A stretch of 64,000 nt of DNA, taken from the NCBI RefSeq assembly GCF_055900595.2, contig NZ_CM148325.1, one strand, 5' to 3'. The first letter of the stretch is position 1. Each line of letters starts with the position of its first letter. Positions 42,642-44,307 of the stretch are shown here, piece after piece. The translations under genes and the position numbers were made by a program. Under the pieces are notes generated by a model that saw only the letters and a list, made by a program, of their open reading frames with translations, searched no databases and was not told where the DNA came from.

Positions 42642-42998
42642 AGTCGCTGCCATTTATTCAGATAAAGAGTGCGTGGATGGTAGCAGAATTTCGCTTTGCT
42701 TACCGCCTGTTGTTAAGTGATTTGATCGATGGTTGTTAATGATGTCAACGATGGCGCAAAAATTGCCCGCTTTTGGTGCGCGCTGCGTCAGAATGGCGCA
42801 GTAATTTCCAGTAAATTTCGTCAATGATCACAATTCCAGAATTATATTTTACTTTTGCATAACATTGCGTTTTTTATTCTTTTTATTCATCATCATCGCA
42901 AACATATTCACTTTTTATGCACTTTAAATGCATGGCGTACAGTTATAACTCCTTGATTATCAGTTAATCGCCCCCTTTTATGCACTTTTATCACTGGC

Positions 42999-43014
42999 TG
43001 GCACGAACCCTGCA
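42999..43014 (+). promoter_or_regulatory. sigma54 (-24/-12) promoter of astCADBE
   Basis: TGGCACG-aacc-CTGCA, about 70 bp upstream of the astC start. Confidence 0.6.
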
Positions 43015-43086
43015 ATCTACATTTACAGCGCAAACATTACTTATTATTAACATATAAATAACTAATTATTTACTGTAGAGGTCGCT

Positions 43087-44307
43087 ATGTCTCAGCCAAT
43101 TACGCGTGAAAACTTTGATGAATGGATGATACCTGTTTACGCTCCGGCACCATTTATTCCGGTACGTGGCGAAGGTTCGCGCTTGTGGGATCAGCAGGGG
43201 AAAGAGTATATCGACTTCGCGGGTGGCATTGCGGTGAACGCACTGGGCCATGCGCACCCGGAACTGCGCGAGGCGCTGAACGAACAGGCGAGTAAGTTCT
43301 GGCATACCGGTAATGGTTACACCAACGAGCCGGTACTGCGACTGGCGAAAAAATTGATCGACGCCACGTTTGCCGATCGCGTCTTCTTTTGTAACTCCGG
43401 TGCGGAAGCCAACGAAGCGGCGCTAAAACTGGCGCGTAAATTCGCTCACGACCGCTACGGCAGCCATAAGAGCGGTATCGTGGCGTTTAAAAATGCGTTT
43501 CATGGTCGCACGCTGTTTACCGTCAGCGCGGGCGGACAGCCAGCCTATTCACAGGATTTTGCGCCACTGCCACCGGATATTCGTCATGCTGCATATAACG
43601 ATATTAACTCTGCCAGCGCGCTGATTGACGACTCTACCTGTGCGGTGATTGTCGAACCCATCCAGGGGGAAGGCGGTGTGGTGCCAGCCAGCAACGCATT
43701 TTTACAAGGTCTGCGTGAATTGTGTGACCGCCACAATGCGCTGTTGATTTTTGATGAAGTACAAACCGGCGTCGGGCGCACCGGGGAACTGTATGCCTAT
43801 ATGCACTACGGCGTGACGCCTGATCTGTTAACTACCGCCAAAGCGTTGGGCGGCGGTTTCCCCGTTGGCGCTCTGTTGGCAACCGAAGGGTGCGCCAGCG
43901 TGATGACTGTTGGCACCCACGGCACCACCTATGGCGGTAATCCGCTGGCCTCGGCGGTGGCAGGCAAAGTGCTGGATCTCATCAACACGCCAGAGATGCT
44001 TATTGGCGTTAAACAGCGTCACGACTGGTTTGTTGAGCGTCTAAATACCATTAATCACCGCTGCGGTTTATTCAGTGAAATTCGTGGATTAGGTTTGTTG
44101 ATTGGCTGTGTACTGAATGCCGATTACGCCGGGCAAGCGAAACAAATTTCTCAGGAGGCGGCGAAAGCGGGCGTGATGGTGCTGATTGCTGGTGGCAATG
44201 TGGTGCGTTTTGCGCCTGCGCTCAACGTCAGCGAAGAAGAGGTGACGACCGGGCTGGATCGCTTTGCAGCTGCTTGCGAACACTTTGTTAGCCGAGGTTC
44301 ATCATGA
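43087..44307 (+). CDS. astC: succinylornithine transaminase
   Basis: 406-aa class-III aminotransferase; first gene of ast operon. Confidence 0.95.

Follow-up and report, generated by a model that had tools for sequence, protein, structure and literature searches.

How transcription of astC, the first gene of the astCADBE operon, is started from the spacer that parts it from its divergent neighbour xthA, and whether the -24/-12-like element in this spacer is the nitrogen-regulated promoter known from Escherichia coli K-12, are the questions raised by the stretch of DNA analyzed here (64,000 nucleotides of contig NZ_CM148325.1, RefSeq assembly GCF_055900595.2; herein referred to as the window). 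Two coding sequences bound the spacer:

41835-42641, minus strand: xthA coding sequence, the divergent neighbour (ORF list and RefSeq annotation).
43087-44307, plus strand: astC coding sequence, first gene of astCADBE (ORF list, RefSeq annotation and identity to K-12).

The spacer between them is 445 bp long (42642-43086), and the start of astA lies at 44304. An E. coli record that is 100% identical is annotated in RefSeq with the operon order astC-astA-astD-astB-astE on the plus strand and xthA on the minus strand. The encoded AstC is 98% identical to K-12 b1748 and AstA is 99% identical to the K-12 protein (tblastn).

The element on which the question turns can be read directly from the plus strand:

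42999-43014, plus strand: sigma-54 -24/-12 promoter element TGGCACGAACCCTGCA (read directly; matches the K-12 ChIP-seq motif).

It is made up of TGGCACG (42999-43005), AACC and CTGCA (43010-43014), with GG at 43000-43001 and GC at 43012-43013 spaced by exactly 10 bases; it sits within a conserved block that spans 42994-43016, and 72 nt lie between the end of the motif and the astC ATG (43087). The preliminary description of this locus had claimed TGGCACG-N4-CTGCA at 42999-43014 as a fit to the -24/-12 consensus; direct reading bears out both letters and coordinates, and the fit holds with one mismatch to TGGCAC-N5-TTGCW (C for T at 43010) that is present in K-12 as well. The exact TGGCACGAACCCTGCA pattern occurs once in the 64-kb window versus 0.04 times expected from shuffles, and TGGCAC-N5-TTGCW with at most one mismatch is found three times versus 3.49 expected. 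By itself, the sigma-54 motif is not above chance in 64 kb; the site at 42999 stands above chance because of its place (intergenic and directed towards astC) and its conservation. Indeed, it is the only one of the three matches that is both intergenic and pointed at a nearby start codon. The second match (25093-25108, plus strand, TGGCACGACAACTGCT, one mismatch) is located amid transposase-like ORF remnants, and the third, at 58535, is without the GC. The K-12 sigma-54 sites of yeaG and cedA were also searched for in the window, and neither is present.

The closest counterpart of this element is the K-12 astCADBE promoter. Sigma-54 ChIP-seq in K-12 assigned to astC the site OS17, with the motif CTGGCACGAACCCTGCA on the minus strand and a predicted start 62 nt from the astC start, and flagged it 'C', that is, experimentally confirmed in EcoCyc (Bonocora et al. 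2015; PMC4591121). Window positions 42998-43014 read CTGGCACGAACCCTGCA, identical to OS17 in all 17 letters and placed in the same gene context, and between 42972 and the astC ATG a single base differs from K-12. The orthologous site upstream of astC in Salmonella Typhimurium (TGGCACGAATGCTGCAAT) is bound by sigma-54 in ChIP-chip (PMC3844500). By in vitro genomic SELEX (gSELEX), the astC/xthA spacer was recovered with RpoN holoenzyme alone, with NtrC alone and with both, and the same work lists astC as one of the small number of RpoN promoters in RegulonDB that experiments support (PMC8743547). In nitrogen-starved cells, NtrC ChIP-seq gave a peak at astCADBE (PMC4066584), and that paper credits direct NtrC binding there to Kiupakis and Reitzer 2002. 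According to the secondary literature, ast is induced when nitrogen is limiting, NtrC is required for its expression, and astC is directly transcribed by RpoS; the literature further reports rpoN-dependent transcription from the position of the astC sigma-54 promoter, calls astCp a weak sigma-54 promoter to which ArgR binds naturally, and presents ArgR with arginine as an accessory, not essential, activator. Sigma-54 and NtrC binding, and ArgR and RpoS dependence, are taken here from this literature.

The NtrC ChIP-seq peak (U00096.2 1830021-1830101, approximately 42992-43072 of the window) falls over the promoter and not over the NtrC-like sites near -250. We rejected this as an astC-specific feature, since peaks in the same study likewise coincide with sigma-54 motif centres at glnK, gltI, glnH, rutA, ddpX, yeaG and nac.

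Comparison with the mapped astC promoters thus leaves the claimed identity with the known nitrogen-regulated promoter intact: CTGGCACGAACCCTGCA and the 62-nt distance equal those of OS17, nothing contradictory was found in the literature examined, and the 17-mer identity to K-12, the Salmonella orthologue and the RpoN and NtrC binding literature agree. We regard it as very nearly certain that the element is the sigma-54 (RpoN)-dependent, NtrC-dependent promoter of astCADBE, designated astCp2 in K-12. This promoter is already well characterized, and the element is an ordinary positive control.

Downstream of the -24/-12 element, the following features were recognized:

43016-43023, plus strand: sigma-S-type -10-like element TCTACATT (conservation and resemblance to the sigma-S -10 consensus).
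43025-43086, plus strand: predicted sigma-54 start (A43025) and 62-nt astC leader ('motif centre + 19' rule).
43047-43053, plus strand: conserved TTAACAT in the astC leader (conservation).
43078-43081, plus strand: Shine-Dalgarno GAGG in the astC leader.

The start was placed by the rule of PMC4591121, under which the motif centre (43006) plus 19 nt gives a predicted start at 43025, equivalent to position 1,832,044 of K-12 NC_000913.3 (where the astC ATG is at 1,831,982), and a distance of 62 nt to the ATG at 43087 that equals the K-12 distance. A structured leader or riboswitch was considered and rejected (fold z = 0.70, not significant; no Rfam family in the spacer). A promoter scan of the plus strand of the spacer found no sigma-70 promoter towards astC. 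The -10-like element has a C at -13 and the hexamer TACATT at 43018-43023, and runs into the sigma-54 promoter at its downstream edge; a motif-anchored alignment of 36 spacers, drawn from over 20 genera of Enterobacteriaceae, shows little or no variation at 43016-43023. TCTACATT resembles the sigma-S -10 consensus and may be a sigma-S-type -10, with a start a few bases downstream of 43025.

The span marked in the preliminary description (42700-43090) takes in nearly the whole xthA-astC spacer, including the upstream activator sites, of which the most distal resemble NtrC sites:

42764-42780, unstranded: NtrC-like site 1, TGCCCGCTTTTGGTGCG, centre at about -253 from the predicted start, 4 mismatches.
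42784-42800, unstranded: NtrC-like site 2, TGCGTCAGAATGGCGCA, centre at about -233, 4 mismatches, 20 bp from site 1.

Judged against the NtrC consensus TGCACC(A/T)4TGGTGCA (PMC4987338), the E. coli sites are weak, at 4 mismatches apiece. Two sites with no more than 4 mismatches in the spacer compare with 0.04-0.06 expected by shuffling (P ~0.001), and the whole window holds just six such matches, these two included. Their offsets from the -24 T (-235/-236 and -215/-216) are constant within 1 bp across Enterobacteriaceae; most genera of the family read TGCACCA at site 1, and site 2 retains TGC and GC(A) as its half-site cores. Consensus match and conservation together suggest that 42764-42780 and 42784-42800 are NtrC sites, and the same sites are found in K-12, alike in sequence and position.

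Across Enterobacteriaceae, the length of the enhancer-promoter interval (235 bp) changes by no more than +/-1 bp. In Erwiniaceae (e.g. loci L060, L107, L117 and L126), the NtrC-like sites are found farther out, with offsets of -246/-226 from the -24 T, and an IHF-like core (-53) and an ARG-like element (-94) are kept at their offsets; one helical turn has therefore been added distally. The near-invariant interval and this whole-turn shift argue for a stereospecific nucleoprotein structure.

MAFFT footprinting and motif scans anchored on the -24 T divide the spacer into discrete conserved blocks parted by free-running sequence. Those between the NtrC-like sites and the promoter are:

42812-42820, unstranded: conserved block TAAATTTCG, about -213 (MAFFT footprint).
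42826-42849, unstranded: conserved block GATCACAATTCCAGAATTATATTT, about -199 to -176 (MAFFT footprint).
42836-42934, unstranded: region of ARG-box-like (ArgR) sites on the promoter side of the NtrC-like sites (consensus scan).
42906-42923, unstranded: best ARG-box-like site, ATTCACTTTTTATGCACT (consensus scan).
42836-42853, 42854-42871 and 42895-42912, unstranded: other ARG-box-like sites (consensus scan).
42946-42958, minus strand: exact IHF core consensus WATCAANNNNTTR (AATCAAGGAGTTA), centre at about -73.
42978-42989, unstranded: conserved block TTATGCAcTTTT, abutting the -24 element on its upstream side.

ARG-box-like sites with at most 4 mismatches number six in the spacer versus 1.8 in shuffles, with four in 42836-42934 and two in the astC leader. 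At offset -94, TATTCACTTTTTATGCA (42905-42921) is kept from Escherichia to Pantoea, Rahnella and Hafnia; K-12 reads GTATTCACTTTATATGCA here, and two substitutions in the present lineage restore the cross-genus consensus. Consensus and conservation point to 42836-42934 as a region of ArgR sites. Immediately upstream of the promoter, TTATGCAcTTTT (1.5-1.8 bits per position in the 36 spacers) is the third copy of a TTATGCA/TGCATAA half-site motif, the others lying at 42856-42862 (inverted) and 42915-42921, and this motif may be an ARG-box half-site.

The best conserved non-promoter stretch of the spacer is TAAATTTCG-N5-GATCACAATTCCAGAATTATATTT (42812-42849), and Erwiniaceae retain GATCACAA at an unchanged offset. 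By eye only, 42812-42849 resembles the Lrp consensus. A CRP site at 42813-42834 was rejected, also by eye, as its left half-site matches at 2/5 positions and its spacing is off by one. In E. coli VL40 (locus L006, 1733-2500), an IS1A copy lies in the xthA-astC spacer with a 9-bp target duplication (AATTTCGTC); its insertion point corresponds to window positions 42814-42822, inside a conserved block, and it places the NtrC-like sites 777 bp farther from the promoter, constituting a natural test of enhancer distance. On the xthA side, a further conserved block (AAATTCTGCTACCATC, 42675-42690, minus strand) is found approximately 35 nt upstream of the xthA start codon and is probably the xthA promoter, its CTACCAT resembling a sigma-S-type -10.

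At offset -53 (+/-1), the IHF-like core occurs in 33/36 loci of Enterobacteriaceae and 17/17 of Erwiniaceae (50/53 overall) versus 0.035 expected per spacer, and its specified positions are conserved and its four N positions are not, which is consistent with 42946-42958 being a candidate IHF site. Among nine open-access papers that mention both astC and IHF, none appears to report an IHF site at astC, and the architectural protein named for astC is ArgR. Only the deep conservation of the IHF-like core and the rigidity of the enhancer geometry might be new in this analysis. Given the fixed IHF-like site at -73 (conserved from Escherichia to Pantoea), the conserved 25-bp block, the fixed interval and the one-turn shift in Erwiniaceae, we tentatively raise the possibility that astC is served by a rigid ArgR-plus-IHF nucleoprotein loop and not by ArgR only, a proposal that we ourselves hold to be somewhat doubtful.

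The overlap of the sigma-54 element with a sigma-S-type -10 allows for a different role of the bound polymerase, in which sigma-54 holoenzyme would mainly occlude a sigma-S or sigma-70 promoter, repressing or gating it, with little productive sigma-54 transcription. Bases 43010-43023 belong both to the -12 region and to the putative sigma-S-type -10, the weakness ascribed to astCp in the literature fits such a role, and the authors of the gSELEX study propose that RpoD promoters can be repressed by RpoN holoenzyme bound to a promoter (PMC8743547). However, conserved NtrC-like sites at fixed helical phase and an ArgR/IHF-like architecture suit a productive enhancer-dependent promoter, ast expression is described in the literature as NtrC-requiring and inducible by a shortage of nitrogen, and occlusion leaves the conserved enhancer unexplained. 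We consider it very unlikely that occlusion is the main function of the site; it may occur as a side effect, without replacing activation.

The reading that we prefer, a productive sigma-54 promoter, can also be examined by its distribution among astC homologues. We collected 120 loci, one genome per species, by a DNA-pattern scan with a back-translated AstC peptide (and hence independently of the promoter), and scored the best GG-N10-GC site with at most 2 mismatches in the 500 nt upstream of each homologue. A sigma-54-type site is found in 68/69 Enterobacterales loci versus 2/46 outside the order. Within Enterobacteriaceae, 41 of 42 loci carry the site, always 71-77 nt before the ATG; all 18 Erwiniaceae loci carry it 78-95 nt before the ATG, as do all nine loci of Yersiniaceae and Hafnia at distances of 93, 151 or ~259 nt. 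Beyond the Enterobacterales, the counts fall to none of 24 in Moraxellaceae, one of 10 in Pseudomonadaceae and one of 12 in other groups, and both of these exceptions lie ~390 nt upstream of astC. Within E. coli, the 601 bases around the element were found in 5424 of 5426 complete genomes, and in 4739 of these 5424 the 60-bp segment 42978-43037 is unchanged, with at least 95% identity in the rest.

Column by column, GG and GC are invariant in all 36 aligned Enterobacteriaceae spacers, with 2.0 bits at GG, CA, TGCA and GC and only 0.8-1.1 bits at three central spacer positions (43008-43010), a pattern characteristic of sigma-54 recognition rather than of overall sequence inertia. That the element is a chance consensus match devoid of promoter function, with astC driven only by a sigma-S- or sigma-70-type promoter, draws on the motif count in the window (three matches at one mismatch versus 3.5 expected), on the overlapping sigma-S-type -10 and on the RpoS dependence of astC given in secondary papers, but we assign it virtually no probability and exclude it because the element is identical to the K-12 site occupied by sigma-54 in vivo (and orthologous to the bound Salmonella site) and because it is conserved as a recognition site would be, with constant GG and GC, variable N positions and a near-universal presence in Enterobacterales at a fixed distance.

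Two of the loci inspected merit separate mention. In Escherichia albertii NBRC 107761 (L010), the astC ATG is replaced by ATA and the alignment to the protein breaks between residues 297 and 298, which makes astC probably a pseudogene in this strain; the promoter is kept with one change (TGGCACA). Additionally, a 413-bp contig labelled Microbacterium sp. 18062 (L122) carries an enterobacterial astC 5' end with a sigma-54 promoter, and is most likely a contamination of that assembly.

Related promoters place these features in context. Salmonella enterica astC (STM1303) occupies the orthologous position under like NtrC and ArgR control, whereas its motif departs at three bases within the non-specified spacer and the variable intergenic parts have diverged; S. 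diarizonae has TGGCACGAACGCTGCA 73 nt from the ATG and the same upstream blocks. The E. coli promoters glnHp2 and glnAp2 resemble astC in being NtrC-dependent, with a -24/-12 element, tandem upstream NtrC sites and looping, and glnHp2 uses IHF, a DNA-bending protein, in the interval that separates enhancer and promoter. In contrast to both, the astC enhancer is unusually distant (~-250), the reported protein for both architecture and inducer sensing is ArgR with arginine, and a putative sigma-S-type promoter overlaps the sigma-54 element.

Relative to K-12, the window comes from a divergent E. coli lineage, in which approximately 20 substitutions fall in the variable part of the spacer (42894-42980), most of them outside the conserved blocks. 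The spacer segments 42500-42800 and 43000-43100 show just ~1 difference per 100 bp. Few genomes carry this spacer allele, 9-12 of 5424 in all (9 at >=99%). Over 6.3 kb (40700-47000, xthA-astCADB), the lineage is ~5.5% diverged from K-12, which far exceeds usual E. coli divergence. A recombination patch or hotspot at 42894-42980 was rejected because this whole neighbourhood is diverged by ~5.5%; the substitutions cluster where the spacer of a divergent lineage is free to vary.

On a larger scale, collinearity with the closest complete genome (99.95%) is confined to 39002-64000, the left 39 kb (1-39001) is accessory DNA, and the junction (~39002) falls at ynjA/ynjB. The region 31000-39200, which is covered to at least 80% in only 27 E. 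coli genomes, is annotated with an integrase, a GT4 glycosyltransferase, a polysaccharide deacetylase, IS5 and a phosphoethanolamine transferase. No tRNA gene was found in the 64-kb window. Three small RNAs score above the Rfam gathering threshold: the Hfq-binding sRNA isrN (8363-8505, plus strand), the IS10 antisense RNA RNA-OUT (22298-22367, minus strand) and the sRNA ES036/CssrF (51662-51704, minus strand).

In keeping with the usual scheme for enhancer-dependent promoters, we hypothesize that sigma-54 RNA polymerase binds the -24 GG and -12 GC and would wait there as a closed complex until nitrogen becomes limiting and phosphorylated NtrC, assembled on its two upstream sites (at ~253 and 233 bp), contacts the polymerase by looping of the intervening DNA, using ATP for promoter opening. 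Transcription would then start near 43025 and produce the 62-nt leader before astC. Arginine-bound ArgR on the ARG-box-like sites between enhancer and promoter would raise expression, most likely by shaping the loop, and the IHF-like core at -73 may likewise help to shape this loop of ~230 bp. The putative sigma-S-type -10 at the downstream edge of the element would permit stationary-phase expression from almost the same place. The sequence of the element, its identity to K-12, its position and its conservation are direct observations of this work; we infer from the sequence the exact start, the assignment of the NtrC, ArgR and IHF sites and the geometry of looping.

As a positive control, the locus demonstrates that a sigma-54 promoter can be placed to the base from sequence alone. 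The biology to which it belongs is that of the textbook, in which nitrogen limitation and arginine turn on arginine catabolism through NtrC, sigma-54 and ArgR. The enhancer geometry, including the IHF-like core, is held almost to the base pair across two Enterobacterales families and, if not already described, would be of interest for the study of DNA looping by bacterial enhancers.
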